Assembly (NCBI GenBank): GCA_963705595.1
Contig: CAVPKD010000007.1
Location: 2,640-66,639 of the forward strand
Reading direction: 5' to 3'
DNA length: 64,000 nt
Origin: Nitrospirota bacterium
Lineage (GTDB): Bacteria > Nitrospirota > UBA9217
The notes under the pieces were generated by a model. It made no database searches. It saw only the letters and a program-made list of their open reading frames with translations, and had not been told where the DNA came from. The translations under genes and the position numbers were made by a program. Numbering within the stretch: position 1 is the stretch's first letter; each line of letters begins with the position of its first letter. Below, piece after piece: positions 1,313 to 63,618 of this stretch.

Positions 1313-2804
1313 GTGGTCACCATACTGATCATACCGGTCGTAACTGCCTTCATATGCTATGTGATGAGGAATGCACGCTTAATCGGCTACGTGAGCCTCG
1401 TCGGCACTGCCGCTCTGGCGCTGTATGCCTATCCGACGGTTGCGGCATCCATTTCCGCGCCGGTTGCGGCCATGGGCGGAGCATTCTCGATGGACGCTCT
1501 CTCGGGTTATATCATGGCGATCGTGATTTGCCTGAGCCTCGCATCGGCGATCTACTCCATCAGCTACCTCGAGCACGAGCTTGAAGCGGGGCTCATTGAT
1601 CTCCGCGGGGTCAGGCGCTATTACGGCCTGTTGCAGCTTTTCATCTTCACCATGCTTATCGTGACCATGGCGAACAATCTGGCGATCATGTGGATCGGGA
1701 TCGAGGCCACGACGATCGTGTCGGCCCTTCTCATCGGGCTCGGGTTCCATAAGCGGCCTCTGGCGATCGAGGCGGCCTGGAAATACATCATCCTCTGCAC
1801 GGTCGGCATCACCTTCGCGCTACTCGGGACCTTCATCGCCTACTATGCTTCCACGGCGGTCATGGGGACTGAAGGGGCGCTCAACTGGACGGCGCTCAAA
1901 ACCGTGGCCCCACGGCTTAATCCCATAGACCATGAAGCTCGCATTCATTTTCGTGCTCGTGGGTTACGGTACCAAGGCCGGCCTGGCGCCGGTGCATAAT
2001 TGGCTGCCGGACGCGCACAGCCAGGCACCCAGCCCCATCAGCGCGCTGCTCTCGGGGATCCTCCTGAACACGGCATTCTACGGGATCATGCGCTTTGTAT
2101 CTATCGTCGAACCGTCGACGGGAGAAGCGTTCACCGGCAACCTGTTGATCATCTTCGGGCTCATCTCAGTCGGCATCGCGGCCATATTCATCCTGGTGCA
2201 GGAGAACTACAAGCGGCTCCTTGCGTACAGCAGCATCGAACACATGGGCATCATCTCCCTCGGCGTCGGCATCGGCGGACCAATCGGCATCTATGGGGCC
2301 CTCCTTCATATCCTGAACCACGCGCTGGCAAAGCCGCTCATGTTCTTCGCCTCGGGAAAGATCCAGGCGCGCTTCGGCTCGACGAACATTGCGAACGTGA
2401 ACGGCGTACTCTCTTCCATGCCGCTCCTCGGCACGTTGACCTTCATCGGCGCTTTGTCGCTTTCGGGCACGCCACCCTTCAACATTTTCGTGAGCGAGTT
2501 CACGGTGCTGAAGGCAGCGGTCGATAGGGGGCTCTGGCCCCTGGTGATCCTCTTCCTTCTCTTCGTCGTCATCGTGTTCTACGGGGTCCTGTCAGGTTTC
2601 GGAAAGATGCTGTTAGGAAAGCCGGAAGAAGCGTCAGGCGTTCCGGCAGAGCATCATCATGTCGCAGGCTATAATGCCGGCAATGCTCTCGGCAATGGGG
2701 TCATGATCATTATGGCGCTAGCGGTAATCGTTATGGGCTTCAAAGTTCCCGGGTTTATCGACAGCACTATCAGGACCTGCGTTCAAGTCCTCGGAGTAAA
2801 TTGA
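1313..2804 (+). CDS. hyfF: HyfF/EhrD-like antiporter-type (NuoM/MrpD family) subunit, split by a frameshift near 1925
   Basis: ORFs 1313-1999 (WIGIEATT, EAAWKYIILC) and 1932-2804 (GYGTKAGLAPVHNWLPDAHSQAPSPISALLSG, KRLLAYSSIEHMG) join into one HyfF. Confidence 0.88.
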
Positions 2805-4372
2805 TGGAGAACATCTTCAAGAAAGCGGTATCGACGCGGGAGCATCACAACGAGGTCTTTATCGAGGTCAGGAAAGAGGACTTCAAGGACGTCTGCGTGC
2901 ATCTCCATGCCAGGCAGCATGCGCTCCTGCGCCTCATGTTCGCAGCGGATGAACGGGAGAAAGACGGCCTTTTTCGGATTTATACCGTATTCACCATCCC
3001 TGGCGTGGACAGGTTTTACTTCATCGTGCTACCCATACGGGAACAGGATCCCTCCTTCCCGTCCATTACGAGCTCGATCCCCGCGGCCCACTGGTACGAG
3101 CGCGAGATCAACGATATGGTTGGACTTGTGCCGCACGGGCATCCCGACCAGCGCAGGCTTGTTTTCCATGAATCATTCCCCATGCGTTCTCATCCGCTCC
3201 GGAAAGATTGGAAGATCACGGAATCGGATGCCAAGGAGTGGGGAGAGGGAACGACGATAAAGGTTCCCCATCCTTTCATGGAGGTCGAAGGCGAAGGAGT
3301 CGTCCAGATCCCCGTTGGCCCGGTTCATGCAGGCATCATCGAGCCCGGACACTTCCGGTTCAGCGCCGTGGGGGAGACCATTTTCTTCCTCGAGCCTCGT
3401 TTGTTCTATACTCATAAGGGTACGGAGAAACATTTCGAGACCCTGGGCTTTATCGAAGGGGTGAAGCTCGCTGAGCGTGTTTCCGGTACCTCATCCTTCT
3501 CCCATGGTGCAGCATACTGCATGGCGGTTGAGCGGATGACGGGGGCCGAAATCACGGAAAAGGCATCTGCTGTGAGGACCCTCCTGCTCGAACTCGAACG
3601 TATCTACAATCATGTCGGGGACATCGGGAACATGTGCGCGGGAACGGCGCTCGCCGTGGGATACATGAAGGGCGCGGTAATCAAAGAACAGCTCATGCAG
3701 CTCAATGAACGGCTCACGGGCAGCAGGTATCTGCGCGGAGTGAACGTGGTCGGCGGCGTCACCAGGGATGTATTTGCTCAGGCCGATGATATCCTTAAGA
3801 CCCTTGATATCGCTACCAGAGGTTATAAAGAGCTTATGCAGCTTTTGCTCGGGTCGGTATCGCACATCGAACGGCTCCAGAACACGGGCAAGCTGTCCAA
3901 GGACATCGCAATGAAGCTTGGCGTCACGGGCGTGGCTGCGCGCGCGTCTGGTCTTAACGATGATATGAGAAAGTCCCATCCTCATCTTCTGTACGACCGG
4001 CTGATCTTCGAATCCCACACTCACGAAAAGGGCGACGTGTTCGCGCGCATGATGATACGTGGTGAAGAAACGGAATGCTCCATATCCATGATCCAGGCGC
4101 TCATTGAAAGCGGATATAAGGGCGAACTTGCTGTTCCGGTGCAACAGGCCGCTGCCTATGCGTCGGGACTGGGCTATGCTGAGACGCCGCGCGGTTCGGT
4201 GTTCTACTGGGTCATGGCTGATAAGGAAGGGAAGCCGTTTCGCGTAAAATTCCGCTCACCGTCCTATTGCAACTGGCCCGCGGTGCCCTTTGCGGTCCAT
4301 GGGAACATCGTGCCCGATTTCCCTCTCTGCAACAAGAGCTTTAACTTGTCGTATTCAGGGACGGATATGTAG
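2804..4372 (+). CDS. ehrL: EhrL large subunit (NuoC-NuoD/HycE-like fusion) lacking NiFe-binding cysteines
   Basis: WYERE...GHP, GPVHAGIIEPGHFRF, HKG; has ERVSGTSSFSH in place of RxCxxC and DFPLCNKSFNLSYSG in place of DPCxxC. Confidence 0.88.
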   Translation: MENIFKKAVSTREHHNEVFIEVRKEDFKDVCVHLHARQHALLRLMFAADEREKDGLFRIYTVFTIPGVDRFYFIVLPIREQDPSFPSITSSIPAAHWYEREINDMVGLVPHGHPDQRRLVFHESFPMRSHPLRKDWKITESDAKEWGEGTTIKVPHPFMEVEGEGVVQIPVGPVHAGIIEPGHFRFSAVGETIFFLEPRLFYTHKGTEKHFETLGFIEGVKLAERVSGTSSFSHGAAYCMAVERMTGAEITEKASAVRTLLLELERIYNHVGDIGNMCAGTALAVGYMKGAVIKEQLMQLNERLTGSRYLRGVNVVGGVTRDVFAQADDILKTLDIATRGYKELMQLLLGSVSHIERLQNTGKLSKDIAMKLGVTGVAARASGLNDDMRKSHPHLLYDRLIFESHTHEKGDVFARMMIRGEETECSISMIQALIESGYKGELAVPVQQAAAYASGLGYAETPRGSVFYWVMADKEGKPFRVKFRSPSYCNWPAVPFAVHGNIVPDFPLCNKSFNLSYSGTDM

Positions 4373-16997: not shown

Positions 16998-17307
16998 GCG
17001 TCATTATTGCTATTTTAATTTATTTGTATTTTCAACAAGTTAGTATTTAGCACCGAAATTGCTTTTAATAATATTTGATTATAATAATGTCGATAAAGTA
17101 AAACCATCCCTGAGGATGGGACGGAATGCCCATTAGGTCTCTTCGAGACAATTGGGTTGCAGAAGTATCAGATAATATTGGCGACACGACTTTGCACTTT
17201 AAACGACAAGTGACAGCGTGATTGGTTAAAAAAATGAGATGTAAGATATAGAAAAGAATCTAGGTGGGGCTTGAGAGGCTCATAACTCATTTAGAAAGGG
17301 GAAAAAC

Positions 17308-17991
17308 ATGAAAAAAATGCGCATTAAGCGTAGCTTGTTGCTCTTTGTGCTTGCAGTGGCGGCCCTAGTTACAACGACAGTCCCAGCGCATGCCACCTTT
17401 ATCAAAGACCTAAATGTCCTAGACCCAGCCCCCGTCGGCGATAGATTATTCCTAGAGAAAAACGACGTAGGCGCTAACTCCTTTAGTGGCTTTGTCGGTG
17501 CCCAAAGCTCCGGGCCCAAAGTTGATGCGATCGCTAACGTAAACGTTACAACTGGGAGTGGCTGGGCGAACATCAAGCCAGATAAGGATGCTACGCTGAC
17601 GGTCCTGACCTTTACTCCCGATATAGCAAATACAACCAAGTTTAGTGACTTCTCCTTCCGAGCGCAGCTATTATGGGACTTGAAACTCTCTGATCATGAT
17701 ACCGGGCAAGTCGACGTTATAGTCACCGATCAGAACAACCTTGATTCTACTATTCATTTCACTGGTCTTAAAGGGCCGAATGCCGACTTCGACGTTATCG
17801 GCGTCGTGTCGATCGATGACGAGTGGATTAAATCAGTCAAAATCCTTACTACTATAGGAACTTCGGAAGGAGCTTTGGAAAGCTTTAAAGAGGTCAAACA
17901 AGTCAGTTTCTCCTCCGTTCCCGAACCCTCAACTTTCCTCCTCCTGGGTGCCGGCCTTGGCGGTCTGTGGATCTGGAGGCGGCGGAAGTAA
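17308..17991 (+). CDS. PEP-CTERM sorting-domain surface protein
   Basis: Signal peptide ending VPAHA; C-terminus VPEPSTFLLLGAGLGGLWIWRRRK. Confidence 0.95.
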   Translation: MKKMRIKRSLLLFVLAVAALVTTTVPAHATFIKDLNVLDPAPVGDRLFLEKNDVGANSFSGFVGAQSSGPKVDAIANVNVTTGSGWANIKPDKDATLTVLTFTPDIANTTKFSDFSFRAQLLWDLKLSDHDTGQVDVIVTDQNNLDSTIHFTGLKGPNADFDVIGVVSIDDEWIKSVKILTTIGTSEGALESFKEVKQVSFSSVPEPSTFLLLGAGLGGLWIWRRRK

Positions 17992-18016
17992 CAGCAACTG
18001 ATGCTTCTTACTATCG

Positions 18017-18044
18017 GGGCCGAGAAGTTACTCGGCCCTTTTTT
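18017..18044 (+). terminator. Intrinsic terminator after the PEP-CTERM gene
   Basis: GGGCCGAG-aagtta-CTCGGCCC followed by T6. Confidence 0.8.
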
Positions 18045-18249
18045 ATTCTTCAGAGCTTTGATTGCTGTACGTTATCCTTTGCCTGTAGATATATTATATA
18101 GTAGGTTAAAGTTACGGGTCCCACGTTCAGGTTTGTTTGCAAGAAAGAAAACACTGAAACGGAGAAGCTTCGCGACATCGCGGTGAATTTATTTGCCATT
18201 TTAGCAAGAATTCAAGTCGGTAAGTTATTATGAATATCTTTACCGATCG

Positions 18250-49901: not shown

Positions 49902-49984
49902 ACCGGAGCGCGGACAGAGCAGAGAAATATTTTGACTTTCCTACTGCCGTATGATATAAAACGACCATAATTTACCAACGATCA

Positions 49985-50151
49985 CATCCAGGCGAAGGGA
50001 ATCCCGTGTAAATCGGGAGCGGACCCGCCGCTGTAATCCCGGCCCCGCAGGAAGCGGGGTCTATAACCGTTACCAGTATCATTGCCACTGGCCCGCAGAT
50101 CGGGCTGGGAAGGCAGGTAAGGGTGGGAGAGCCAGAAGACCTGTTTGGATG
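49985..50151 (+). ncRNA. Cobalamin riboswitch upstream of btuFCD
   Basis: AAGGGAAtcccGTGtAAATCGGGAGCGGACCCGCCGCTGTAA...GCCACTG...TGGGAAGG...GAGCCAGAAGACCTG; P1 CATCCA/TGGATG. Confidence 0.92.
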
Positions 50152-50203
50152 TCCTCGCACAGTCTTCGGCGTTAAGATCATGTGTGGGTTAATACGCCCT
50201 ATT

Positions 50204-50317: not shown

Positions 50318-51232
50318 ATGTTCAAGGGCAGAGCATTATCCGGTTTCTCTGCGAAGATCCTCGTCCGGACATTTATTAATCTTATGAAACAATTTTTCAT
50401 AACCCTATTCTTCATCTTAAGCTTATCGAGCATCACCCCAGCGGCTGAACCCGCATCACCGCCCAAGCGGATCGTCTCGCTTGCGCCGAGCATGACGGAG
50501 ATTCTGTTCGCACTGGGGCTCGGCGATAACATCGTCGCGGTGACCACCTTTTGCGACTATCCCGAGGAAGCGAAGAAGAAACCGAAGATCGGCGGCATGT
50601 CCAACCCGTCGCTTGAGGCCGTCGTCTCATTAAAGCCCGATATCGTCGTGATGACCACGGACGGCAATCCGAAGGAATTTGAGGAGCGGCTCCGCTCGCT
50701 AAAGATCCATACCTATGTTTCCCGAGCGCGCAGGCTTGCGGAGCTTCCTCAGGACATCAGGGAACTGGGTGCTGCGCTTGGGGTCCAGGGGCGGGCGGAT
50801 GCATTGGCCGATACGATAGCGGCCGGTATCAAGAGGTTGTCCGCAGGATCAAGTTCGTCGTCCGTTTCTTCTCCCACCTCGCCTAAGAAGGTGCTGTTTA
50901 TCGTCTGGCCCGAACCGCTTATCGTTGCCGGGCCCGGCACGGTCATAGACGACGCTATCACGCTGCTCGGATATGAGAACATCGCAGCGACGGCAAAGAC
51001 CACCTATCCCAAGTATTCCATCGAGGAGGTCATCCGTCAAGCGCCGGATGTGCTGTTTATCGGCAAGGGATCGGGGATGGACATGCAAGCGGTCTCGCAG
51101 GGGATCCTGCAGAGACTTGCGACCGTGCCGGCGGTGAAGAACGGGAAGGTCTATTTCATGAGCGATAGCCTGTACCGGCTCGGACCGCGGGTCATCAAGG
51201 GCATCGAGGAGCTCGCCGCATGTCCAAAGTAA
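50318..51232 (+). CDS. btuF: Cobalamin ABC transporter substrate-binding protein
   Basis: RIVSLAPSMTEILFALG, FCDYP, PSLEAVVSLKPD, RLGPR; alternative start at 50384. Confidence 0.9.
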   Translation: MFKGRALSGFSAKILVRTFINLMKQFFITLFFILSLSSITPAAEPASPPKRIVSLAPSMTEILFALGLGDNIVAVTTFCDYPEEAKKKPKIGGMSNPSLEAVVSLKPDIVVMTTDGNPKEFEERLRSLKIHTYVSRARRLAELPQDIRELGAALGVQGRADALADTIAAGIKRLSAGSSSSSVSSPTSPKKVLFIVWPEPLIVAGPGTVIDDAITLLGYENIAATAKTTYPKYSIEEVIRQAPDVLFIGKGSGMDMQAVSQGILQRLATVPAVKNGKVYFMSDSLYRLGPRVIKGIEELAACPK

Positions 51233-52188
51233 GGATGTCCATCCTCATTGCTTTCGCCCTGCTCATCGTGCTGTGCTCGGTGCTCCTCGGGCCGACGCAT
51301 CATCTCTCCCTTCGGCCTGACCGCTATGGACCGGGAGATCCTGTTCTCCATCCGTCTTCCGCGCGTGCTGGTCGCGCTGCTCATGGGCATGGCGCTTGGC
51401 GCTTCGGGCGCGGTGCTGCAGGGGATCCTGCGGAACCCGCTCGCCGACCCCTATATCCTCGGCATATCGAGCGGCGCGTCGCTTACAGCGGCGCTCGGCA
51501 TCATCGGCGGGATGACCTTTCTCGGCAGTTTCACGGTGCCGGTGCTCGCTTTTGTCGGCGCTCTTATCACCGGCGGTATCGTGGGAGCGATGGGTTGGAA
51601 GCGGGGAGGACTCTGGCCCGAACGGCTGCTGCTCGCGGGTGTGGGCCTGAGCTTTCTCTTTTCCGCGCTCTTGATGCTCATGATGAGCATCTCGACCGAT
51701 GAGGGACTGCGGCGGGCCATGCTCTGGATCTTCGGCGACCTTTCCATGTCCGAGTGGCAGCGGATACCTTACGGGCTGGTGTTCGTCCTGGCGGGCACTC
51801 ATCCTGTCGGCCACGCGGGCAAAGGCGCTCGAATGCGCTGATCCTCGGCGATGAGTTCGCCCACAGCCTGGGGTTCGCGCCGCAGCGCGAACGGTTCATT
51901 CTCTTCGTCTCCGTCGGGCTCATGACCGCGGCATCGGTCTCGCTCGGCGGCATGATCGGGTTCATCGGCCTGCTCATCCCGCATATCATGCGCTTCTTTC
52001 TCGGCTCCGACAGCAGGATGCTGATCCCGGCGTCGGCGCTCGGCGGCGGTTCGCTCCTCTGCGTCGCGGATCTGGTCAGCAGGTCGCTCCTGCCGCCCAT
52101 GGAGCTTCCGGCGGGTGTCATCACGGCCATTATCGGCGCGCCCTATTTTTTGTACCTGCTCAGGAGAAAAGATGTCCTCAGCATCTAA
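51220..52188 (+). CDS. btuC: Cobalamin ABC permease (FecCD family; frameshifts near 51305 and 51810)
   Basis: [45 protein letters not shown]. Confidence 0.88.
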
Positions 52189-52949
52189 ACCCAAAATACT
52201 CGATCTTGACGGCGTCTGTTATTCATACGATAAGGACAGACCCTTTATCCAGGATCTTTCCTTTTCCGTGGGCGAGGGAGACTTCATCGGCCTGCTCGGC
52301 GCGAACGGGTCGGGAAAGTCCACGATCCTGAAGCTCGGGAGCGGCATCCTGAAGCCTTCGTCAGGGAGTCTCCTGCTCTGGGGCAAGGATATGCACACGT
52401 TGAACAACCGGGACCGCGCTAAACTGATCAGCTATCTGCCCCAGACACTCGATATCAGCGTGCCGTTCACGGTCAGGGAACTGGTCGGCATGGGGCTCTA
52501 CCCGTACGACATCCCTCCTGCCATGACCGTTGATGATGCCCTTGATATGGTCGGGCTCAGTGACAAGGCGGATGCCCATCTCCCGGACCTGAGCGGAGGG
52601 GAACAGAGGAGGACCTTCATCGCCATGACACTCCTGCAGGGGGCGGGCCTGCTCCTGCTTGGATGAACCGCTCGCGAACCTCGATATAAAATATCAGATC
52701 GAACTGGTAAGGCTCCTCAGGAGACTGAAGGAGGAGAGGAATATATCGGTGGTCATGGCGCTCCACGATATCAATATGGCGCTGCAGTTCGAGAGCGTGA
52801 TCCTCATCCAGGAGGGGAGGATCATCGCGTCAGGCAACCCGGAAGCCGTGCTGACCCGGGACATGGTTAAGCAGGCGTTCGCTGTGAATGTGGAGATCAA
52901 GCGGTCCGGGACCGATGGCATCTATGTCAGCTACGAGGATAATTTCTGA
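52172..52949 (+). CDS. btuD: Cobalamin ABC ATPase (frameshift near 52660)
   Basis: GANGSGKST, LSGGEQRR, DEPLANLD, ALHD. Confidence 0.88.
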
Positions 52950-52983: not shown

Positions 52984-53216
52984 GGGAATGGTTCTCTATA
53001 AGAAGAAACACCGTATCTGAAGAGCGTAATCAAAAGGGAATAGAGAAGCGGAAAGGGGTGAGAATCCCCTGCTGTCACGCAACTGTGATGGAAACGAAAG
53101 CCGTGATCGCCACTGGAAGAGCTGTTCGAACAGTTTAAACGGTTCAAGCTGTTTGAGCGAATGCTCCGGGAAGGCCGGCAAGTAGGATGTCCTAAGCCAG
53201 GAGACCTCTCGTTCCC
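52984..53216 (+). ncRNA. Second cobalamin riboswitch, internal to the operon, upstream of btuB
   Basis: AAGGGAA...GGTGAGAATCC..GCTG..CGCAACTGTGA...GCCACTG...GGGAAGG...AAGCCAGGAGACC. Confidence 0.88.
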
Positions 53217-53245: not shown

Positions 53246-55093
53246 ATGAAGGGAATTGTGGTCAGTATTATTCTGATATGCGCGGCAATGGCAGCGGCGG
53301 TTCCGGAAGTCAAGGCAGAAGAGGAAAGCGTACAGTTAAAGGAAGTAGTCGTCACCGCAACGAGAACAGAAAAAGAGCCGCAGGACCTCACCCAGACGGT
53401 CACGGTCATCACCGCGAATGATATTCAGAAATCGGGAGCAACGACCGCAGCGGAGGTGATCGAACGAACGGCCGGGGCTGATGTGAAGGACTATGGGTCA
53501 AAGGGTTCTCTCAGCACCATTAATCTGCGGGGAGCCAATGCCGAGCAGGTCCTGGTGCTCCTGGACGGGAGACGACTAAATTCAGCGAGTGCCGGCGGGT
53601 TCGATATGGCAGATCTGGCGGTGCCTCTTGAAGAGATCGACAGGATAGAGATCGTGCGCGGCCCTTCCTCGGCCCTGTACGGTGCGGATGCCGTGGGTGG
53701 CGTCGTTAACATCATTACAAAAAAACCAGGTGGAGCAGCGACAACGGCGATTGGCGAGGGCGGGAGCCACGGATTCGGGTCTTTCACGCTCAGCAATTCG
53801 AACAAGCTCGATAAATTTTATTACACGCTTTCTGCGGCGAAGACAAAGTACGATGGCTTTCGAGAGAACAGCGACCTCGATCAGTGGACCGCGGGGGCAA
53901 AATTGGGCTATGGCTTGAGCCCGGATTCGAACCTGGAATTTACTACGGATTATTTAGCCAAAGAGATCGGGGTGCCCGGTTCGCTCGATTTCCCAAGTCC
54001 TTTGGCCCGTCAGTGGGACCGTAACATCGGCTCATCGCTGACATACAATACAAAATTCTCCAAAGAAATGGACCTGAGACTTAACGCGTACCAGAATCGC
54101 GAGAAGATCACCTACACAGATCCTAATCCGGTGTTTCCTGTAAACAGCAAGCACACCAGCACATCGACCGGCGCAGAGGCCCAGTCAAACTGGCTTGCCA
54201 ATTCATGGAACCAGTTGACCTTCGGCCTTGACGCGAGGCAGGACCATGTCGAGAGCACTGATGCGGGCGAGCATACGGCATCGCTCTGGGCGGCCTATCT
54301 CCAGGATGAGATCTCTCTGGGGGAGTCGCTCATTGTCGTTATCGGCGTCCGGAATGACAACCACTCGGTCTATGGCGACAAAGTCAGTCCCAAGATAAGC
54401 GCGCGGTACCTCTTTTCCGGTACCGGAACGATCATCAGGGCCTCTGCAGGTCAAGCATTCAGGGCGCCCACCCTTAACGAACTCTTTTGGACGTTCGACG
54501 GCTTTGAGCAGGGGAACCCGAATCTCAAACCCGAAACCGCAACAGAATACGAGGCCGGGATCGAACAGCCTTTCGGGAAGGGAAACTCGATCAAGTTCAC
54601 GTATTTCGAACGTAAGATCGATAATCTCATTCAATGGCTGCCTGACTCGAACTTCATATACAGCCCTATTAATATCGGAAAGGCCAAGATCACCGGATCG
54701 GAAACCGAGCTCAAATTGGTTCCTTTCGAGCATCTCACCTGGGCGATAAACTACACGTATACGAAAGCCGTGGATGAAAACACAGGCTTGTATGTTTATA
54801 ACGTCCCTGCGGAGCAGCTTAAAAGCTACTTGAATCTGACGCTCCCGACAAGAACAAACGTCTATCTGGAAGGCCGATATGTGAGAAATTACAGTCAGCC
54901 CGTGCTTCCGAATCCGACACAGCACTACACCGTGGTAGATGCAAAGATTTTGCAGCCGGTCAAATTAGGTGAGAAGATGAAGTGCGACGTATTCTTCGGC
55001 GTCAAGAACATGTTCAACCGTCAATATCAGGTTCTCGCAGGATATCCTGCGGCTCCGGAAGAACTGTACGGAGGAGTTTCGGTCCAGTTCTAA
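53246..55093 (+). CDS. btuB: TonB-dependent vitamin B12 receptor
   Basis: Signal peptide, EVVVTATRTE, LVLLDG, RIEIVRGPSSALYGADAVGGVVNIITK, C-terminal Phe; riboswitch upstream. Confidence 0.9.
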   Translation: MKGIVVSIILICAAMAAAVPEVKAEEESVQLKEVVVTATRTEKEPQDLTQTVTVITANDIQKSGATTAAEVIERTAGADVKDYGSKGSLSTINLRGANAEQVLVLLDGRRLNSASAGGFDMADLAVPLEEIDRIEIVRGPSSALYGADAVGGVVNIITKKPGGAATTAIGEGGSHGFGSFTLSNSNKLDKFYYTLSAAKTKYDGFRENSDLDQWTAGAKLGYGLSPDSNLEFTTDYLAKEIGVPGSLDFPSPLARQWDRNIGSSLTYNTKFSKEMDLRLNAYQNREKITYTDPNPVFPVNSKHTSTSTGAEAQSNWLANSWNQLTFGLDARQDHVESTDAGEHTASLWAAYLQDEISLGESLIVVIGVRNDNHSVYGDKVSPKISARYLFSGTGTIIRASAGQAFRAPTLNELFWTFDGFEQGNPNLKPETATEYEAGIEQPFGKGNSIKFTYFERKIDNLIQWLPDSNFIYSPINIGKAKITGSETELKLVPFEHLTWAINYTYTKAVDENTGLYVYNVPAEQLKSYLNLTLPTRTNVYLEGRYVRNYSQPVLPNPTQHYTVVDAKILQPVKLGEKMKCDVFFGVKNMFNRQYQVLAGYPAAPEELYGGVSVQF

Positions 55094-55109
55094 ACAGCAG
55101 AGGATCAAT

Positions 55110-55183
55110 TTACTGCAGAGCCGCAGATGGCGCGGGGGATACGATCATGAAACTCCTTATGACCTTTGCGTCCTCTGTGGTAA
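55110..55183. repeat. Intercistronic inverted element between btuB and tonB
   Basis: TTACTGCAGAGCCGCAGA ... CTTTGCGTCCTCTGTGGTAA. Confidence 0.65.
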
Positions 55184-55193
55184 GATATTCACT

Positions 55194-55870
55194 ATGACGT
55201 TTCAGCGTTCATTATATATCTCCCTCTTTATCCATGTCCTGGTCTTCGGCAGCGCCATTGCTTTTGCCCAGTTCGCCAGGGGTACGCTTTCGGGCCATCG
55301 GGATGTGACTGTCGTGTCTCTCGTCGATCCAGGATCGGGAACTCAGGGCAGGGCCTCGCAAAGCAGGGAGCGTCGCAGAGGTATTGTCTGACCGACGGTC
55401 GGAAGCGATTCACGAAACAGCCTCATCTGCGGCGCAACCGGAAGTCCCTGCGGAGAGGCAAGCTGCACGAGAGGAGGCTTCGCTTCCAGGGGTCCAGGAA
55501 AACAATAAAGTCGGCACCGGTGACGCCGGCGATGCGGGTGCGCTTGCATGGGCAGGCCGGGGAAGGTTCAGCGGGGTCAGGTCCTGATACGCAGTTCGGA
55601 CTGGTCCCTGCGGAGCAATGGGCAGTGATCGTTTCCTCCATCGAGCGGGTGAAAAGCTATCCGCGTTTTGCCCGGGAGCGCGGTATCCAGGGAGTGGTGC
55701 ATCTCCGGTTCCGGGTGAGGCCCCAAGGCGAGGTGGACCGCGTTGAGATCGTCAGGAGCTCAGGATATGAAATACTGGACACTGCTTCGGTCCGCACAGT
55801 GTACCGCGCTGCCCCGATGCCGTATGTGAGCGGGTGGATCGAAGTGCCGATATCATATGTGCTTAAATAA
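55194..55870 (+). CDS. tonB: TonB energy transducer (frameshifted in the linker)
   Basis: N-terminal [10 protein letters not shown]; C-terminal [14 protein letters not shown]...SSGYEILD. Confidence 0.8.
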
Positions 55871-55887
55871 AGGTGTGGAGTTTAGGA

Positions 55888-56091
55888 ATGGAAGGCAAGA
55901 AGACAAGATGTCCGATCTGTAAAAAAGAGGCCGCGTGGGACAATAATCCTTTCAGGCCTTTCTGCTCCGAGCGGTGCAGGATCATGGATCTCGGCAAGTG
56001 GGCTTCCGAAGGATACCGGATCGCCGGAGAAAAGAAAGAGACACCGGGAGAGGGTAGCGAAGAAAAAAATAATAAAGAGAAGGCTGGATAA
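55888..56091 (+). CDS. yacG: DNA gyrase inhibitor YacG
   Basis: CPICKK...[22 protein letters not shown]. Confidence 0.95.
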
Positions 56092-56277
56092 TTTTTTAAA
56101 AATATACTACAATAAGTTATCAAATTTAAAAACTAAAGAGAAAAATCCTGAACAACCAGAATCTCGGGTCACGCTGTTTTAGGTTTCGGTTATTCTAAGC
56201 GTTGCAGATCCGGGCCGTATTGAGAATGTGAACATGAACCGGCGGTTGTGATTCCTTAAATCAGGAGGCCATGCAGC

Positions 56278-57375
56278 ATGGAGATCCGGTGTGGAAGCTG
56301 CAATAAGCTTTTCCGTGTCGCCGATGAAAAAATTACCGGGACGGGTATCAAGTTCGCCTGTACGCGCTGCGGCAACTATGTAAAGATCACCAGGCAGGAC
56401 TTCGAGCAATATGATCTGTCCAAGGCCGCCGCTGACGTTCCCCCCGCGTTTGTACCGCCTGCTCCCACGGCAACTTTCGAGACCGCAAAAACCGAGGCGA
56501 CAGCAGGCTATGAGCCTGCGGCTGCAGTGCCCGAAAGAGGCCCTGAGCACCCTCTGCCGCCTGCCGCAGAGACCCCGCACTTTGAACCGGTTTCGCTGGC
56601 AACAAAACCAACACCTGCACCGGAACCGGAGCATATACTGCACCCGGAGCCCGTGGTGAAACCGGGACAAGAAGCGAAGCCGGCCACCGCGTCCAGACCC
56701 GAACCTCTCCGTCCATCAACACCAGCTGCGTCACGACCCGAGCCGATACCTTCTGCGGCGCGGCCCGCGACCACCGGAGCGGATATCATTTCAGCCGGGT
56801 CTCTTGCCCCTGCTTCCTCGGGGAAGAAATATCTTATCCTGGCCCTTTTGCTCGTCGTCCTCTGCGCAGGAGCGTTCTTCATCCTCCGTTCGGCAGGTTA
56901 TAACGTTTTCAGGTTCACGCGGCCGGCCTCGAAAGGAACTGAGGTGGCTCCAAAGGGGATGACCTCACCCGAGGGGCTGCAGATCACCTCTGCCTCGGGA
57001 TCTCTTGACCAGAACCAGGACCTTATCATCAGCGGCGCGATTGAAAATACCACGGACAAGGAACGGACGGCCTGGTACGTAGTGGTTCATGTGTACGACG
57101 CTCAGGGTGCGGTCCTTATGAATTCGAGGATGTTGAACGGCAAACAGCTCTATACGAAGAGAGACTATGAGGTCCTGGAAAAACGCGGAGTGAACGTCCA
57201 GGAACTCAAGGCAAAGGACCTCCAGGAACCGGGGGTCGTCATACCGCCAAAAGGCTCGGTGCAGTTCGAGATCCGCTTCATGGAACCGCCAGTCGGCATT
57301 TCCAGCTTCAATGCCTCGCTCCAGCCCTTTGATCCGGAACAGTTGTTCAAAGAAATGGCTGAGGAACAGAAATAG
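56278..57375 (+). CDS. MJ0042-type zinc-ribbon protein with Pro-rich linker, TM and DUF3426-like domain
   Basis: CGSCNKLFRV...CTRCG; PEP-rich linker; single TM; IISGAIEN. Confidence 0.8.
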   Translation: MEIRCGSCNKLFRVADEKITGTGIKFACTRCGNYVKITRQDFEQYDLSKAAADVPPAFVPPAPTATFETAKTEATAGYEPAAAVPERGPEHPLPPAAETPHFEPVSLATKPTPAPEPEHILHPEPVVKPGQEAKPATASRPEPLRPSTPAASRPEPIPSAARPATTGADIISAGSLAPASSGKKYLILALLLVVLCAGAFFILRSAGYNVFRFTRPASKGTEVAPKGMTSPEGLQITSASGSLDQNQDLIISGAIENTTDKERTAWYVVVHVYDAQGAVLMNSRMLNGKQLYTKRDYEVLEKRGVNVQELKAKDLQEPGVVIPPKGSVQFEIRFMEPPVGISSFNASLQPFDPEQLFKEMAEEQK

Positions 57376-57673
57376 CAGAAACCTCCAACTTTTTGACAAA
57401 CCGTTCTCTATGAACCAGAACAAAGCGAATGGCCTCGCAATATAATGAAAAAACTGGATTTTTCATTATGTTCAGATCTTATCCAATATTGTGCTTTAAT
57501 TTAATTTGTACAGGATGCCCAGATACCCCAAAAATACCCCGATACCATCAAAAATTACAAATTATTGAATTATAAAGATAATATTTGTTTGTTTTTGGAA
57601 AAACAAATTAAATTTGCTAATAATTAAAAATATCCCCTTGACAATAAAATTCTTGTACCTTTATTTTAATATT

Positions 57674-57731
57674 TGTAGTATAATTTTACATATAATGGAT
57701 GTTCCCTGTAATGTTGTAACATAGTTTTACA
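57674..57731. promoter_or_regulatory. Pair of TGTA-N6-TTTTACA (TGT-N11-ACA) sites upstream of the EPS operon
   Basis: TGTAGTATAATTTTACA (57674-57690) and TGTAACATAGTTTTACA (57715-57731). Confidence 0.6.
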
Positions 57732-57991
57732 GTCTCTAAGTATTACCCGTGCTTTTAACATTGCTGTTATTTTAAAAATTCGTTGTCGTTACCTTCCTAC
57801 CTTAATGATGTGATCATGTAAGTGAGAGGGCGGAGCCGTGCCAGAGCCTTTCACTTGTCGTAACATGAGTTCAATCAAAAGAAAACCTTTGGCTTATAAC
57901 TCCAAAAAGCATCGTAAAATGACAGGATTCACCCGTTCTTACCACCATTTCATGAGAAAATGATCGAGGGCCGGTCAAGAGACAGACCATC

Positions 57992-59062
57992 ATGTACCTT
58001 AATTTTTATAATCTGAAAAAGGAACCATTCAAGATAGCGCCTGACCCCGAGTTCCTCTTCTTAAGCCCCAGCCATAGAGAGGCATTGGCATCGATCATGT
58101 ATGGCGTGGAACAGCGGAAGGGTTTCATAACGATAACCGGCGAGGTCGGGGTAGGGAAGACATCGGTCCTGCGCTACTATCTCGAACAGGTTGATAAAGC
58201 AAATCTTAAAGCGGTCTATATATTCAATCCCAACCTCTCATTCACAGGTCTTCTGAAGACCATTTTTCAGAAGATGGGTTTCGATACCAAAACAGAAGAT
58301 CTCGCTGAGATGGTGAATAATTTTCACCTGATATTGATCGATAGATACAAACAGGGGCGCAATATGGCGCTGATCATCGACGAGGCCCAGAACATGCCGG
58401 TGGAGACCCTGGAAAATCTTCGCATGCTGTCGAACCTCGAGACCTCGAAGGAAAAACTTCTCCAGATCGTGCTCGTCGGCCAGCCGGAATTCGCAGAAAC
58501 GCTCAAGAGAAAGGAATTACGGCAGCTCCAGCAACGCATTTCCATAAAGGCGACAATCTCGCCTCTTACGAATAAGGAGTGCACGGAATACATTCAGCAC
58601 CGCATGACAAAGGCCTCTCTCAACGGTACTAAGGTGTTCGCGCAAAGCGCAATAAAAAAGATCATCGCTGAATCTCAGGGGATCCCGCGTCTCATCAATG
58701 TCCTCTGTGACAATGCCCTCATCACCGGCTTCGGCTATCAGAAAAAACGCATTACCGCCCGCGTGGCGGAAGAGGTCATTGCTGACTTTAAGGGAGAGAG
58801 GAAGCCTGTTTCTTCTCTTTCTTCATTTGAAGTCGGTTTTTTTGGCGCCGTAGTTCTATTGTTCTTAGTGGGCGCCTTTTCACTTTATCTGCATGGACGC
58901 AATTTCATGTCAACATTGGAGGGTATGCCGAAATACGCCACGCAGGAAAACCAGGTTCCTCAAGGGGCCGACAATGCCGGCCGCTCCAGAACGGGTAAAA
59001 TTTCCACGACCAGGGTGGAAAGCGAACCACTGGTCAAAAAAGAAATATCAGGGGACAGATGA
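57992..59062 (+). CDS. ExeA/GspA-like AAA ATPase (PEP-CTERM/XrtA system-associated type)
   Basis: MYLNFYNLKKEPF, ITGEVGVGKT, LIIDEAQ, LVGQPE, SQGIPRLINVLCDNAL. Confidence 0.9.
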   Translation: MYLNFYNLKKEPFKIAPDPEFLFLSPSHREALASIMYGVEQRKGFITITGEVGVGKTSVLRYYLEQVDKANLKAVYIFNPNLSFTGLLKTIFQKMGFDTKTEDLAEMVNNFHLILIDRYKQGRNMALIIDEAQNMPVETLENLRMLSNLETSKEKLLQIVLVGQPEFAETLKRKELRQLQQRISIKATISPLTNKECTEYIQHRMTKASLNGTKVFAQSAIKKIIAESQGIPRLINVLCDNALITGFGYQKKRITARVAEEVIADFKGERKPVSSLSSFEVGFFGAVVLLFLVGAFSLYLHGRNFMSTLEGMPKYATQENQVPQGADNAGRSRTGKISTTRVESEPLVKKEISGDR

Positions 59063-60873
59063 GCAAGTTTTACGAAGCACTGAAACGGGCAAAAAAAGAA
59101 CCGAGAGGGAACGGGACGGGTGCTGTCAGAGACGCTCATCAGAGCGACGAGACAGTAAATGATAATGCCGTCCAGAGTCTCCCTCAGCAACCGGGTGTTC
59201 CGGCCGTGGTCAAGCAGGGCGGTCCCAGGAGAACGGACTCGGAACAAATGTCGAATCCCGGCAGGGATGGTCACAGGACGAATGCTGTCAGAGACGCTCA
59301 TCAGAGCGACGTGACAGTAAATTATGATGCCGTCCAGAGCCCCCCTCGGCAACCGGGCGTTCCTGTCGTGATCAAGCAGGGCAGTCTCAGCGGCAGGGAT
59401 GCAGACCAAACGCAGGCTCTGGACATAAAACAGGTCGATGCGACAGTAATTAATAATGGCCACCAAAACGCCCCTCAGCAGCAGGGCATCTCCATCGTCG
59501 TCAAGGAAGGCGGTCCCCGGAGAGCAGGCGCCGAACAAACGCAGGAACTGGACATAAAGCGATATCTTCTTCTCGTACGGAAACGGCGCTCACTTTTTGC
59601 GGTTGTTGCCGCTTTCATCATGAGCGCTGCGGTCGTGACCAGCTATGTCATACCTCCGGTCTATGAGGCCCAGACCATTGTTTCCATCGAGAAAAACCTT
59701 CTGAATGACATCAGCAAAGGCCTCGCCATGTCGCCGTCCATGGATACCAAGGTCAGCCCTCTTGCCACGATCATGAAAAGCAGGACAGTTATTTACAAAG
59801 TGATCAGTGATCTCGACCTTGATCTGGGTAGGAAGAATGAAGCCGATATCGAGAGCCTCATCAAAAGTATCCAGGAGAGGACCGAAGTCAAGCTCGAGTT
59901 CAACAAAGTGAGCAGAGGCAATATTGATTTTTTCACCGTGTCCTTTCAGGACCGGGATCCGAAGGTGGCGAGGGATTATGTGAATACGCTGGTCGGGAAG
60001 TACATTGAAGAGAACCTCAGGTTCAACAGAGAGGCCTCGACTGGCACAAACAGTTTTCTTCTCGACCAGATCAATCTTGTCAAGGCGAAAGTAAACAAGC
60101 TCGATGGGGAGATTGTGCTGCTCATGGAAAAGGAAGCAGAGATCGAGCAGTTGAAGAAAAAAGAAGAAGAGATCGCGTTACAGAACGAGAACAGGCCTAG
60201 TGTTGCCGATTCCCGAGCGCTTGAACTGAAAAAACTGAAAAAAAGGCTCGATTATCTTCTTGTCCATTATACGCCGGATTATCCCGAGGTGACCAAGGTG
60301 AAAGCAGATATCGAGTCGCTCAAAGCGGAGATAAAGGCTTCGCCGCGAGATCCTGCCAGTGTTAATGGTCCCGTGAGACGATCCGCCGAAAAAAGCAATG
60401 TCAATCCGACAGCCTCTTCGGATGTGAAGACCCGGCTGGTCGAACTCGAGCGTGAACGCGACACGAACAAAAGGATCTACGACGAACTGTCTGCGGCCTA
60501 TGGCATATCGCAGGTGTCTGCGCAGGCGGAAATACAGGACAAGGTAGGCAAATTCAGGATCGTGGACCCCGCCATCCTGCCTATCAAACCCGTCAAACCG
60601 AACCGCATCATGATCATGCTGCTGGGAATTCTCGCCGGGATCGCGGGTGCCTTCAGTCTTATCGTGCTCCTTGATGTCTCGGACAAGTCCGTCAAGAGCG
60701 TTGGGATGCTCAAGAACTTCGGCTTGCCTGTGCTTGTAGTCCCGCATATTCTGACCCCAGGTGAATTGAAAAAGGTCCGAATAAACAATGTCTTCTTCTA
60801 CGGTCTTTCAGGACTGTACGTATTGCTGCTTGCAGCCGTCATTGTGCGGGAAGTGATCAAAACGCTCGCGTAG
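59059..60873 (+). CDS. Polysaccharide chain-length determinant (Wzz/GumC-like) with repetitive N-terminal extension
   Basis: TM, PPVYEA, DRDPKVARDYVNTL, YTPDYPEV, FRIVDPAILP, TM. Confidence 0.88.
   Translation: MSKFYEALKRAKKEPRGNGTGAVRDAHQSDETVNDNAVQSLPQQPGVPAVVKQGGPRRTDSEQMSNPGRDGHRTNAVRDAHQSDVTVNYDAVQSPPRQPGVPVVIKQGSLSGRDADQTQALDIKQVDATVINNGHQNAPQQQGISIVVKEGGPRRAGAEQTQELDIKRYLLLVRKRRSLFAVVAAFIMSAAVVTSYVIPPVYEAQTIVSIEKNLLNDISKGLAMSPSMDTKVSPLATIMKSRTVIYKVISDLDLDLGRKNEADIESLIKSIQERTEVKLEFNKVSRGNIDFFTVSFQDRDPKVARDYVNTLVGKYIEENLRFNREASTGTNSFLLDQINLVKAKVNKLDGEIVLLMEKEAEIEQLKKKEEEIALQNENRPSVADSRALELKKLKKRLDYLLVHYTPDYPEVTKVKADIESLKAEIKASPRDPASVNGPVRRSAEKSNVNPTASSDVKTRLVELERERDTNKRIYDELSAAYGISQVSAQAEIQDKVGKFRIVDPAILPIKPVKPNRIMIMLLGILAGIAGAFSLIVLLDVSDKSVKSVGMLKNFGLPVLVVPHILTPGELKKVRINNVFFYGLSGLYVLLLAAVIVREVIKTLA
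59121..59560 (+). repeat. Degenerate in-frame coding repeats (162-nt and ~129-nt periods)
   Basis: TGCTGTCAGAGACGCTCATCAGAGCGACG at 59121 and 59283; CAAACGCAGG..CTGGACATAAA twice. Confidence 0.85.
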
Positions 60874-60883
60874 GAGAGAACGA

Positions 60884-61707
60884 ATGGGTAGAGTAGAAAA
60901 AGCTCAGGAAAAGACGATCCGGCGAACAAGATCGAATAATACGGATGGCACGGATCGTGAGGCGATGTCCCTCCTTAAGGACCCGCGGAGTCGGAGAGAA
61001 TGATGTTCAAGCCTACCAATCCCTGCGTGGTGACCTTCAACAATCAAGATTCGCCCGTTACTGAGCAGTATCGGAAATTGAAGACTCTGATCCTGAAGAT
61101 GACTAGGAAGGAGTTCCGGAACACGCTCCTCGTCACCAGCTCCGTCGGCGGAGAAGGTAAGAGCATCACATGCGCGAATCTGGCGATCATGCTCGCCCGG
61201 GAATACGGGCATACGGTTATGCTGGTCGATGCTGACCTGAGGAAGCCGGCACTCCACGAATATCTCGGGCTCAAGTCCGTCTTTGGCCTTGCTGACTGTC
61301 TTAATGACAGGATAGATCTTGGCAAGGCTATCGTGAAAACCGGGTTGCCGAAGCTCTCGTTCCTGTCAGCGGGGAAACAGGTGGCGGATCCCGCGGAGCT
61401 CCTTTCGTCGTACCGGATGAAGGAGCTCCTGATGGAGCTGAAGAACCGATACCAGGATCGGTACATCATCATCGACACTCCGCCCACTCTCCTGTACGCT
61501 GAAACGCTGGCATTGAGCGCCCTTGTCGATGGGGTTGTCGTTGTGGTCAAGGAAGGGGTTGCTTCTCTGCAAGGTGTCCGCGATACGCTGGACGTCCTGA
61601 AGGGTGCAACGCTGCTGGGTATCGTCTATAACGATGTGAGTAATGCGAGCCTGGATGGAAGTTACCGCAACTACAAGGATCATTACAAAAAATATCAGAA
61701 GCAGTGA
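60884..61707 (+). CDS. BY-kinase (CpsD/CapB/Wzc cytoplasmic domain; frameshift near 60990)
   Basis: GGEGKS, LVDADLRKP, IIDTPP, C-terminal Tyr cluster SYRNYKDHYKKY; upstream start MGRVEKAQEK. Confidence 0.88.
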
Positions 61708-62033
61708 TCCGGTCCCCAATGATCAGCTAAGCCGTGCCCCTCCCTCCGGGACTAAGACGTGAACGACCTCGCTTTAAACCATCTTTAAAATCTCAGCCCG
61801 GCGATTATTTACACCACCCCCGCCGATGGCAGCGTCCAGAATGAACGAGGAAATGCGAATGCCATTTTTCTCGTCCACATCCTCATCACGGGAACAGTGC
61901 AGGACATGACGCGCCCGCAGCATGGCTGCCACTCCGTGCAGAGAGCCTTAGACAGTTCCATGGTCTCAGGCATTCCGAAGAATAGCCAGGCAACGTGTGA
62001 AACCATAGAAAACCGGCGATCATCTCAAACTCC

Positions 62034-63215
62034 ATGACACTACCAGAAGTAAACCAAATAAAGAAAACGGAAGACAAACCTGCTGTACCGCAGCAGCGCT
62101 CCTCTGTGTTATATGATGAAGAATTCGACTGTTACGGGGAAGAATACTTCAATGAATTTCTCGCGTTCGAGCGAAAACGGAGCGAACGTACAAAAAGACC
62201 ATTTGTGGTGCTGACGCTGGATTTTACCGGCATCACTGATTTGACGAACAGGCGTGAATCCATTAAGTGGGCCGTGAAGACGCTGTCCACGATCACCCGG
62301 GAGACCGATATCAAGGGATGGTACCGACGCCAGGACGTGCTTGGCGTTATCTTTACGGAAATAAACGGTCTCGAAACGGAGACCATGCAGAAATATATTT
62401 TAAAGGACCTGCAGGCCAGTCTGGCGAAAGAACCACTTGATTTTATACGCATGTCCCTTCTCATCCGGATATCCGTTCACCGGTTTCCCGATGATGGGAG
62501 TCCGAACATCCCGCGTGGCCTCGCAGATAAAATGTTCTATCCCGATCTCCCCAAAAGAGATCGAAGCCAAACAAACGCCCTCAAGGTGAAACGGTTCATG
62601 GACGTTGTCGGCGGTATCGCGGGCATCCTGCTCTTCTCTCCCTTCTTCATCCTGATCCCGATAGGCATCAAGCTCACTTCACGAGGGCCAGTGCTGTTCC
62701 GGCAGGAGAGGATCGGACGATATAGAGAAAAATTCACCTTTCTGAAATTCAGGAGCATGTACGTCAACAGCGATGAGGACGTGCACCGAACGTATGTTCA
62801 CGACCTTATTGCCGGAAAGGCATCCGGCGAAGCCGGCGACAACGGCGCCGGGCAGAAGGTATACAAGATCACGAAGGACAAGAGGGTGACCCCCTTCGGG
62901 TACATCCTCCGGAAGACGAGCCTCGATGAACTGCCTCAGTTCTTCAACGTGCTGAGCGGAGAGATGTCATTGGTAGGGCCGAGGCCTCCTCTTCAGTACG
63001 AAGTCGAGAAGTATGATATATGGCACTGGTGCCGTGTTCTGGAGGTAAAACCAGGGATCACCGGGCTGTGGCAGGTCTCGGGGCGGAGTTCAACCACTTT
63101 TGCTGAGATGGTGCGCCTTGACCTCGAGTACGCGAGAAATTGGTCGCTGCGGATGGACATTGATATTCTGTTGAAGACGCTAAGGGCTGTTCTGAATAGA
63201 AAAGGCGCGTATTGA
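62034..63215 (+). CDS. Priming phosphoglycosyltransferase (Bac_transf family) with N-terminal degenerate GGDEF-like domain
   Basis: KRFMDV, GPVLFRQERIG, FLKFRSM, LRKTSLDELPQFFNVLSGEMSLVGPRP, KPGITGLWQVSGR. Confidence 0.92.
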   Translation: MTLPEVNQIKKTEDKPAVPQQRSSVLYDEEFDCYGEEYFNEFLAFERKRSERTKRPFVVLTLDFTGITDLTNRRESIKWAVKTLSTITRETDIKGWYRRQDVLGVIFTEINGLETETMQKYILKDLQASLAKEPLDFIRMSLLIRISVHRFPDDGSPNIPRGLADKMFYPDLPKRDRSQTNALKVKRFMDVVGGIAGILLFSPFFILIPIGIKLTSRGPVLFRQERIGRYREKFTFLKFRSMYVNSDEDVHRTYVHDLIAGKASGEAGDNGAGQKVYKITKDKRVTPFGYILRKTSLDELPQFFNVLSGEMSLVGPRPPLQYEVEKYDIWHWCRVLEVKPGITGLWQVSGRSSTTFAEMVRLDLEYARNWSLRMDIDILLKTLRAVLNRKGAY

Positions 63216-63618
63216 GAACTCATGCTATTCCGACTTCGGTATGCGTAGAACTAAGTAACCGGGCGGAAAGCGGACCTAGGTCGCCAACAGTAGGCACCTC
63301 TAGGCGATGCGGAAAGAAGCGGATAATAAATTTACCGCGAGGACGCGATGAGCGCGAAGAAAAACAAGCATTCATGTTTTAATTAAGTCAAGCAACCTTT
63401 GCATCCCTTGCGCCACGTGTGGTCGCTTCTGATTTTAGGCTATGGCGGTTCCAGATTATGGTTCGATCTTATCTGACTGCATAACTTAATCTGCGTGTAT
63501 CTGCGAAAATCTGAGTTCTGGAACACAATGAAGAAGATATAGATTTTTTATCAAGAATTTCTCCGCGTCCTCCGCGGTGAAGGATTTCGATAATGCGGGT
63601 GAATGAGTTGGAGGACAT

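Follow-up and report, generated by a model that had tools for sequence, protein, structure and literature searches.

Can cyclic di-GMP (c-di-GMP) act directly on the enzyme that starts a polysaccharide chain? The question is raised by a gene at 62034..63215 on the forward strand of the window, by which we mean the whole 64,000-nucleotide stretch analysed (positions 2,640 to 66,639 of contig CAVPKD010000007.1, assembly GCA_963705595.1, from a Nitrospirota bacterium). The gene encodes a 393-residue protein whose C-terminal half belongs to the monotopic phosphoglycosyl transferases (PGTs), enzymes that load the first sugar phosphate onto the polyprenyl-phosphate carrier. The N-terminal half appears to be a degenerate GGDEF domain, and the gene lies among the genes of an XrtA/PEP-CTERM exopolysaccharide (EPS) locus. 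We find that this domain has lost the features of a diguanylate cyclase while keeping the residues of the allosteric I-site, making it a candidate c-di-GMP receptor built onto a priming enzyme.

The open reading frame is collinear with 89 homologues of ~380-393 aa. A preliminary description of this DNA had proposed a degenerate GGDEF domain fused to a priming transferase, and both the fold and the Bac_transf half are confirmed below. The two peptides that it quoted are found in the frame, at residues 38-64, YFNEFLAFERKRSERTKRPFVVLTLDF, and residues 84-109, LSTITRETDIKGWYRRQDVLGVIFTE. The span that it assigned, 62034-62520 (aa 1-162), takes in the entire N-terminal domain, whose core covers aa 26-152. 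The protein is laid out as follows.

62034..63215, forward strand: whole gene, predicted degenerate-GGDEF / monotopic PGT fusion, 393 aa (open reading frame, Bac_transf match, homologues)
62034..62108, forward strand: N-terminal leader, aa 1-25, poorly conserved and predicted disordered (pLDDT <50 at aa 1-24 in the full model; variable alignment columns)
62109..62489, forward strand: predicted GGDEF-fold core, aa 26-152, running β-hairpin, α1, β1, α2, β2-β3 hairpin, α3, β4 (AlphaFold2, Foldseek, hhalign, PDB profile search)
62169..62189, forward strand: α1 motif ERKRSER (E46-R52), in which R52 corresponds to the arginine that acts in trans at the I-site, WspR R198 / PleD R313 (translation, conservation, alignment)
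62298..62309, forward strand: RETD, the RxxD I-site motif, R89 and D92 (translation; aligned to canonical RxxD)
62310..62342, forward strand: IKGWY plus RRQDVL, a β2-turn-β3 hairpin at the former GG[DE]EF position (hhalign, conservation, translation)
62391..62396, forward strand: K120-Y121 on α3, column 121 being the putative equivalent of PleD R390 (alignment, PMC7288161)
62490..62570, forward strand: low-confidence linker from the sensor domain to the PGT, aa 153-179 (pLDDT <50 at aa 155-164)
62571..62678, forward strand: predicted PGT re-entrant membrane helix, aa 180-215, with a Ser202-Pro203 break (AlphaFold2 helices 180-200 and 204-215; conservation; Foldseek)
62679..63215, forward strand: catalytic portion of the monotopic PGT, which holds the Asp298-Glu299 dyad (nt 62925-62930) and the PRP motif (Pfam, NCBIfam, conservation)

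The C-terminal half matches Bac_transf (PF02397) across aa 186-387 with an E-value of 4.4e-65, scoring 219 bits against a cut-off of 27. In the alignment of homologues, the Asp298-Glu299 dyad (within SLDELPQ), K186, R187, D190 and the PRP motif are invariant, and P203 is at least 90% conserved. The AlphaFold2 model contains a helix-break-helix at S202-P203, like the re-entrant helix of PglC, and Foldseek matches the model to PglC (8e37/8g1n, E 2e-14) and WbaP (8t53, E 4e-12). By sequence and predicted structure, this half is a genuine, intact small monotopic PGT. It shares the re-entrant helix and the DE dyad with PglC, which is without the N-terminal domain, whereas large PGTs of the WbaP type have four transmembrane (TM) helices and a Rossmann-like DUF where the fusion protein has its GGDEF-like domain. 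Since the PGT helix is re-entrant, with a topology taken from PglC and WbaP, both halves of the protein would lie on the cytoplasmic side, where c-di-GMP occurs. Membership of two narrower families was rejected, with matches to the C-terminal catalytic part only and scores below cut-off: EPS_sugtrans (TIGR03025; 289.8 against 295.55 bits) and the XrtA/PEP-CTERM glycosyltransferase EpsB_2 (TIGR03013; 149.2 against 393.35 bits). Two further PGTs are encoded in the genome.

The N-terminal ~180-189 aa match no Pfam or NCBIfam family above threshold, NCBIfam giving nothing, and family libraries alone would therefore have missed the domain. Four lines of evidence agree that it is of GGDEF fold, as judged from sequence comparison and modelling. 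The full-length AlphaFold2 model (pLDDT 80) predicts α1(36-53), β1(57-63), α2(70-87), β2(93-98), β3(102-107), α3(114-131) and β4(145-151), and a model of the domain on its own has a pLDDT of 78.6, reaching ~90 across aa 31-110. When the full-length model was searched against the PDB with Foldseek, four PGT matches (PglC, WbaP) came first and all others among the matches listed were GGDEF structures; with the domain-only model, the best 50 matches were all GGDEF (E 9.5e-6 to 8.9e-4, TMq 0.46-0.56, TMt <=0.69). A profile built from 26 family N-domains likewise gave GGDEF chains for 11 of its 12 best PDB matches, the best at E 0.015. Aligned by hhalign with a profile of eight canonical GGDEF domains from the same genome, the domain matched over 138 columns (probability 95%, E 3.8e-8). 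The family profile, run against the bacterium's own genome, returned the gene itself plus two canonical GGDEF proteins as the sole other matches, and stand-alone relatives in Syntrophorhabdus retain the classical GGDEF start DSLTGLYN. By these comparisons the domain is a remote member of the GGDEF superfamily that Pfam fails to capture, and the GGDEF-like fold of the preliminary description is upheld by Foldseek, hhalign and the PDB profile search. In the hhalign alignment, RETD falls on the RxxD of the I-site, and GG[DE]EF is matched by residues 98-103 (RRQ-D-VL, one residue being inserted), so that the spacing originally given, with RETD five residues before RRQDV, was right to within one residue.

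The cyclase active site of this domain is eroded. Conservation was counted across 241 domains of the family, which have a median identity of 34% to the query. The GG[DE]EF positions, which read RRQDVL (98-103) here, have no majority residue in the family; positions 98-101 are variable turn residues, next to an invariant G95-W96. The first β1 Asp (DxD) is retained in just 135 of the 241. In the hhalign alignment, T65 stands in place of the second metal-binding Asp, and T68 and T71 in place of the Lys and Asn of FKxxND; the GHxxGD loop is short of six columns, and its final Asp falls on R74. The C-terminal K/R phosphate-binding segment of GGDEF domains is not present. With GG[DE]EF unconserved, the second metal Asp lost and the FKxxNDxxGHxxGD guanine-binding block deleted, the domain is predicted to be incapable of cyclase activity.

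Amid this loss, the I-site positions survive and rank as the best conserved of the domain. In PleD four residues make up the I-site: one domain contributes RxxD and R390, a neighbouring domain R313 (PMC7288161), and in WspR the R242A and R198A substitutions lose c-di-GMP (PMC2270323). Both R89 and D92 of RETD occur in 241/241 family domains, as two of just four absolutely invariant positions, which bears out the earlier claim that RxxD is retained and conserved in homologues. A domain of such size would be expected to contain an isolated RxxD by chance; invariance of both residues at this median identity argues that RETD is not a chance match. RETD also aligns with the I-site RxxD of DgcR (6zxm) and with that of the GGDEF domains of the same genome. 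On α1, R52 (239/241) aligns with the invariant α1 Arg of canonical GGDEF domains, and R49 and E46 are each found in 240/241. For α3, we take column 121 to be the first Arg of AERIR and so the position of PleD R390, an assignment by our own numbering that fits the R313-R359 and R198-R242 spacings; it holds K/R in 229/241 domains, and position 120 or 121 is basic in 237/241. The positions equivalent to those of active diguanylate cyclases (R359/D362/R390 plus R313 in PleD; R242/D245 plus R198 in WspR) are kept in the same secondary-structure elements and at the same spacing to the β-hairpin. By sequence, the domain retains RxxD and the α1 arginine R52 of the allosteric I-site, and on α3, where the family has K/R, this protein has K120-Y121. 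In active cyclases the I-site serves product inhibition of an active A-site. The fusion protein has no A-site, so any I-site output would have to go to the fused PGT.

Degenerate GGDEF domains with such sites are known from EPS control. PssE of Listeria monocytogenes is a degenerate GGDEF protein in which RxxD is needed to switch on the EPS machine. In Bacillus subtilis, the R202A and D205A substitutions in YdaK, from the ydaJ-N operon, abolish EPS (PMC5422440). Both resemble the fusion protein in placing a degenerate GGDEF domain with RxxD in EPS control; they differ in that each is a separate membrane protein whose target is a GT2 synthase-type machinery rather than a PGT, and their sequence relationship to the fusion domain is known here at the level of the GGDEF superfamily only. 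The fusion domain is not an ortholog of either. PelD of Pseudomonas aeruginosa, as cited in PMC7288161, is a degenerate-GGDEF I-site c-di-GMP receptor with RxxD and an α3 arginine (R402 position), and a positive post-translational regulator of EPS. The fusion protein shares with PelD a dead GGDEF fold with RxxD, membrane association and a place inside an EPS locus. PelD, however, is a separate TM-GAF-GGDEF protein of a synthase-dependent pathway, whereas the domain described here is shorter, is without GAF or N-terminal TM helices, and is joined to the priming PGT of a lipid-carrier (Wzx/Wzy-type) pathway. PelD was not among the matches listed in sequence or fold searches, and we therefore do not regard the fusion protein as a PelD ortholog. 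Orthology was also rejected on architecture: GAF, N-terminal TM helices and pel genes are all missing, and the protein pairs a GGDEF-like domain with Bac_transf in an XrtA locus.

Regulation of the priming step itself has precedents of another kind. In Myxococcus xanthus, the phosphorylated response regulator EpsW (EpsW~P) is proposed to favour the active dimer of the PGT EpsZ and thereby to activate it (PMC12802240); WbaP is cited in the same paper as a functional dimer, and CapB-CapM of Staphylococcus aureus is quoted there as a case in which tyrosine phosphorylation acts on the initiating PGT. These systems share the control point considered here, the first membrane-committed step. Neither EpsW-EpsZ nor CapB-CapM is a built-in second-messenger sensor, and EpsZ is a large monotopic PGT.

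From the conserved residues and these analogies, we favour, with moderate confidence, a model in which c-di-GMP activates the priming PGT through a degenerate-GGDEF I-site receptor of the PelD/YdaK type in an XrtA/PEP-CTERM EPS locus. Activation rather than inhibition is assumed, by analogy, because every characterised degenerate-GGDEF EPS receptor activates. At high c-di-GMP, an intercalated c-di-GMP dimer would bind to one protomer through RxxD and the α3 residue and to another through R52. The bound ligand would cross-link two sensor domains and so bring or hold the PGT in an active, probably dimeric, state; lipid carrier would thus go to this polymer in sessile cells only. We put forward this bridging version, in which c-di-GMP would gate the first membrane-committed step of a Wzx/Wzy-type pathway by ligand-bridged PGT dimerisation (RxxD and α3 K/R in cis, R52 in trans), tentatively and by analogy, as a possibility about which we are more doubtful than convinced. 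Bridging is favoured as the form of the mechanism because the R52 equivalent clamps the c-di-GMP dimer from a second domain in cyclases and R52 is as conserved here as RxxD; it also fits the functional dimer of WbaP and the proposed promotion of an EpsZ dimer by EpsW~P (PMC12802240).

Several observations weigh against c-di-GMP-dependent activation. The Pfam GGDEF model (PF00990) scores the domain at 12.4 bits (E 0.13), below its gathering threshold of 23.8 bits. The protein and its 7 closest relatives (>=80% identity) carry Tyr121 with Lys120, that is, the lysine is shifted by one position; the same proteins share a 6-residue insertion at aa 137-142, which 233 of the 241 domains are without. 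G95, W96, E46, R49 and F107-T108-E109 are invariant or nearly so, are not accounted for by the I-site and could mark another interface. Both the direction of the effect and the idea of dimerisation are drawn purely from analogy. No diguanylate cyclase gene was found on the 72-kb PGT contig, the ~19 GGDEF matches of the genome all lying elsewhere, and no c-di-GMP riboswitch was detected at gathering thresholds in the window and the part of the contig downstream of it (L009), nor at E<=1 in 55000-62100; two cobalamin riboswitches were the only ones found. With no cyclase on the contig and no c-di-GMP riboswitch in the window, local c-di-GMP wiring is lacking. The ~19 GGDEF domains of the genome do imply that c-di-GMP is made.

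What else might the domain be? An unusual but active diguanylate cyclase, making c-di-GMP locally, would account for the presence of a GGDEF fold, but on sequence it is effectively refuted by the erosion of the A-site: no majority residue remains at GG[DE]EF, substitution or deletion has removed the second metal Asp and the guanine-binding residues equivalent to N335/D344, and the C-terminal phosphate-binding segment is missing. A ligand-free structural relic is a more serious contender, though in our judgement an unlikely one. In that case the GGDEF-derived domain would serve for dimerisation or docking, with the catalytic domain of the PGT, the neighbouring tyrosine kinase or the chain-length determinant as examples of a partner, and its invariant Arg and Asp residues would form protein-protein salt bridges rather than a nucleotide pocket. 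The several invariant residues outside the I-site set would then find an explanation, as would the lack of local c-di-GMP wiring and the near-obligate fusion to a PGT (48/50 loci); moreover, a BY-kinase gene adjoins, and BY-kinases modify PGTs, as in CapB-CapM. Yet the survival of exactly four I-site positions amid erased cyclase machinery would be a coincidence on this account, and PGT-free stand-alone copies of the domain keep the same motifs.

The site might instead bind another nucleotide, such as 3'3'-cGAMP, (p)ppGpp or GTP, and couple priming to that signal. The fold matches include PleD structures with ppGpp or pppGpp beside c-di-GMP (9g85, 9g86), the family includes a Syntrophales lineage, and Desulfobacterota use 3'3'-cGAMP made with Hypr-GGDEF enzymes; the invariant Trp96 and the Tyr121 of this clade are aromatics unseen in canonical I-sites. 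On the other hand, the family spans Nitrospirota, Acidobacteriota and Rokubacteria, across which c-di-GMP would be the common denominator. RxxD with two arginines is, besides, the established signature of a c-di-GMP I-site (PMC2270323, PMC7288161), and we hold a different ligand to be improbable.

What would be new is the target. Post-translational control of EPS by c-di-GMP is well established for synthase-dependent systems (BcsA, Alg44, PelD, YdaK), and it is the priming PGT that decides how scarce undecaprenyl phosphate is shared between pathways. For Wzx/Wzy-dependent pathways, such control was described in a 2025 study as incompletely understood (PMC12802240). The preliminary description knew of no earlier account of direct c-di-GMP control at this point. 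Regulation at the PGT step as such has precedents in EpsW-EpsZ and CapB-CapM (PMC12802240), although none of it is by c-di-GMP. In the literature searched, which did not take in a 2021 PGT network survey possibly listing such a fusion, we came across no paper on this family, no GGDEF-PGT fusion and no effect of c-di-GMP on a priming transferase. The novelty would thus be a receptor of the PelD/YdaK type with the priming PGT of a lipid-carrier pathway as its target, c-di-GMP binding being inferred from sequence and analogy. If true, a c-di-GMP sensor built into the priming PGT would be a simple, direct answer to how Wzx/Wzy pathways are controlled; the bridging mechanism would be the second-messenger counterpart of EpsW-EpsZ and would extend post-translational c-di-GMP control beyond synthase-dependent systems.

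The sensor family is large, has no Pfam or NCBIfam entry and is common in soil and sediment phyla (such as Acidobacteriota, Nitrospirota and Syntrophales) in which biofilms and flocs have received little study. The 89 homologues, found in a word-index search, share the N-domain and all carry Bac_transf. An exhaustive profile search over clusters defined at 50% identity returned 3,253 representatives with E<=1e-3; of these, 1,769 pass E<=1e-10 and 330 pass E<=1e-30. The 1,769 are very probably true members, since E<=1e-10 needs ~56 bits by our estimate, against <=44 bits for the weak non-family matches in the genome; the two of these that were checked are canonical GGDEF proteins. Genomic loci came from Syntrophales, Nitrospirota, Bryobacterales, Solibacteraceae, Terriglobia, Rokubacteria, Syntrophorhabdus, Chitinivibrionales and others, the family also including Acidobacteriota; the 80 loci kept are all from uncultured organisms, 79 of them labelled as metagenome-assembled genomes (MAGs). 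Strong matches (E<=1e-30) occur in 8 of 40 relatives' genomes, including 1 of 3 from the same genus, and the gene is therefore accessory.

In 48 of the 50 loci with long flanks the domain is fused to a PGT. It is modular, occurring in tandem and stand-alone copies. A 628-residue metagenomic relative (P0090) carries two tandem sensor domains before its PGT, both with RETD and ERKRSERS. In another, of 905 residues (P0174), aspartokinase, ACT, sensor and PGT follow one another in a single chain; this may be a genuine fusion or an artefact of gene calling. Stand-alone members of 193-196 aa, with no PGT, are encoded in two Syntrophorhabdus MAGs (L080, 7845-8435; L076, 7833-8414); they keep TRDTDIKGW and a near-canonical start (DSLTGLYN / DSRTGLY), and may be evolutionary intermediates or trans-acting versions. 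One of the two adjoins a PAS sigma-54 activator and the other lies near a receiver-domain protein.

The surroundings of the gene confirm the PEP-CTERM association proposed for it in the preliminary description: immediately upstream come genes for an ATPase, a chain-length determinant and a tyrosine kinase of the XrtA system, and a FemAB pepcterm gene lies downstream.

57992..59062, forward strand: XrtA/PEP-CTERM system-associated ATPase (TIGR03015, E 9e-84; below cut-off)
59059..60873, forward strand: XrtA system polysaccharide chain-length determinant (TIGR03007, 285.5 bits, above cut-off)
61000..61707, forward strand: XrtA-associated tyrosine autokinase (TIGR03018, 238.3 bits, above cut-off)
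63603..64000, forward strand: start of a Gfo/Idh/MocA sugar 3-dehydrogenase-like gene, which runs off the window (family scans)

Downstream of the PGT gene, the order to the contig end is Gfo/Idh/MocA dehydrogenase-like, hexapeptide acetyltransferase, DegT aminotransferase, FemAB pepcterm (TIGR03019, a strong match below cut-off) and GT4 glycosyltransferase. The PGT contig yielded no Wzx-type flippase, exosortase or PrsK/PrsR; these turned up only at the start of contig C1 (1-20000, L091), which encodes GT4, GT2, the Wzx-like flippase, an EpsH-family exosortase, PrsK and PrsR. The exosortase scores above cut-off for TIGR02602, and its best specific match is XrtC, followed by XrtA (TIGR03109), both below cut-off. 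It is plausible that the start of C1 continues the same PEP-CTERM locus across a contig break.

The dehydrogenase, acetyltransferase and aminotransferase form a trio 3' of the PGT gene (L009, the part of the contig downstream of the window, 1643-4327). Among the 50 long-flank loci, a DegT aminotransferase lies ~2 kb downstream in 39, a tyrosine kinase nearby in 20 and an ATPase in 15. The trio, together with the aminotransferase synteny, suggests that the family primes with an acetamido-amino sugar, by a WbpB/WbpE/WbpD-like route to a 2,3-diacetamido sugar. The Gfo/Idh/MocA gene (63603-64000, continuing in L009 at 1643-2242 and 2239-2661) is split into two overlapping open reading frames in different frames, and the PrsK histidine kinase gene on C1 is split likewise (L091, 16035-17147 / 17107-18108). 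Both splits are either assembly frameshift errors or real pseudogenes. Unlike the neighbouring dehydrogenase gene, the PGT gene itself is intact.

A 326-bp non-coding gap (61708-62033) separates the tyrosine kinase gene from the PGT gene and contains no convincing promoter or Rfam match; no obvious Shine-Dalgarno sequence precedes the ATG start codon at 62034, and scanning the vicinity of the PGT gene for promoters and terminators gave nothing informative. The PGT gene may be transcribed or translated apart from the genes upstream. In the chain-length determinant, an N-terminal arm of ~160 aa (59059-59560), visibly repetitive, lies outside the TIGR03007 match, which begins at aa 165. Upstream of the EPS genes, a 365-aa open reading frame (56278-57375, forward strand) has a weak FxLYD-domain match only (NF038353, 25.6 bits). 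Further upstream, two cobalamin riboswitches (RF00174) on the forward strand, at 49973-50162 and 53050-53205 (69.8 and 66.8 bits), precede a cluster for a BtuF-like substrate-binding protein and ABC transporter (50318-52666) and a TonB-dependent B12-type receptor (53246-55093).

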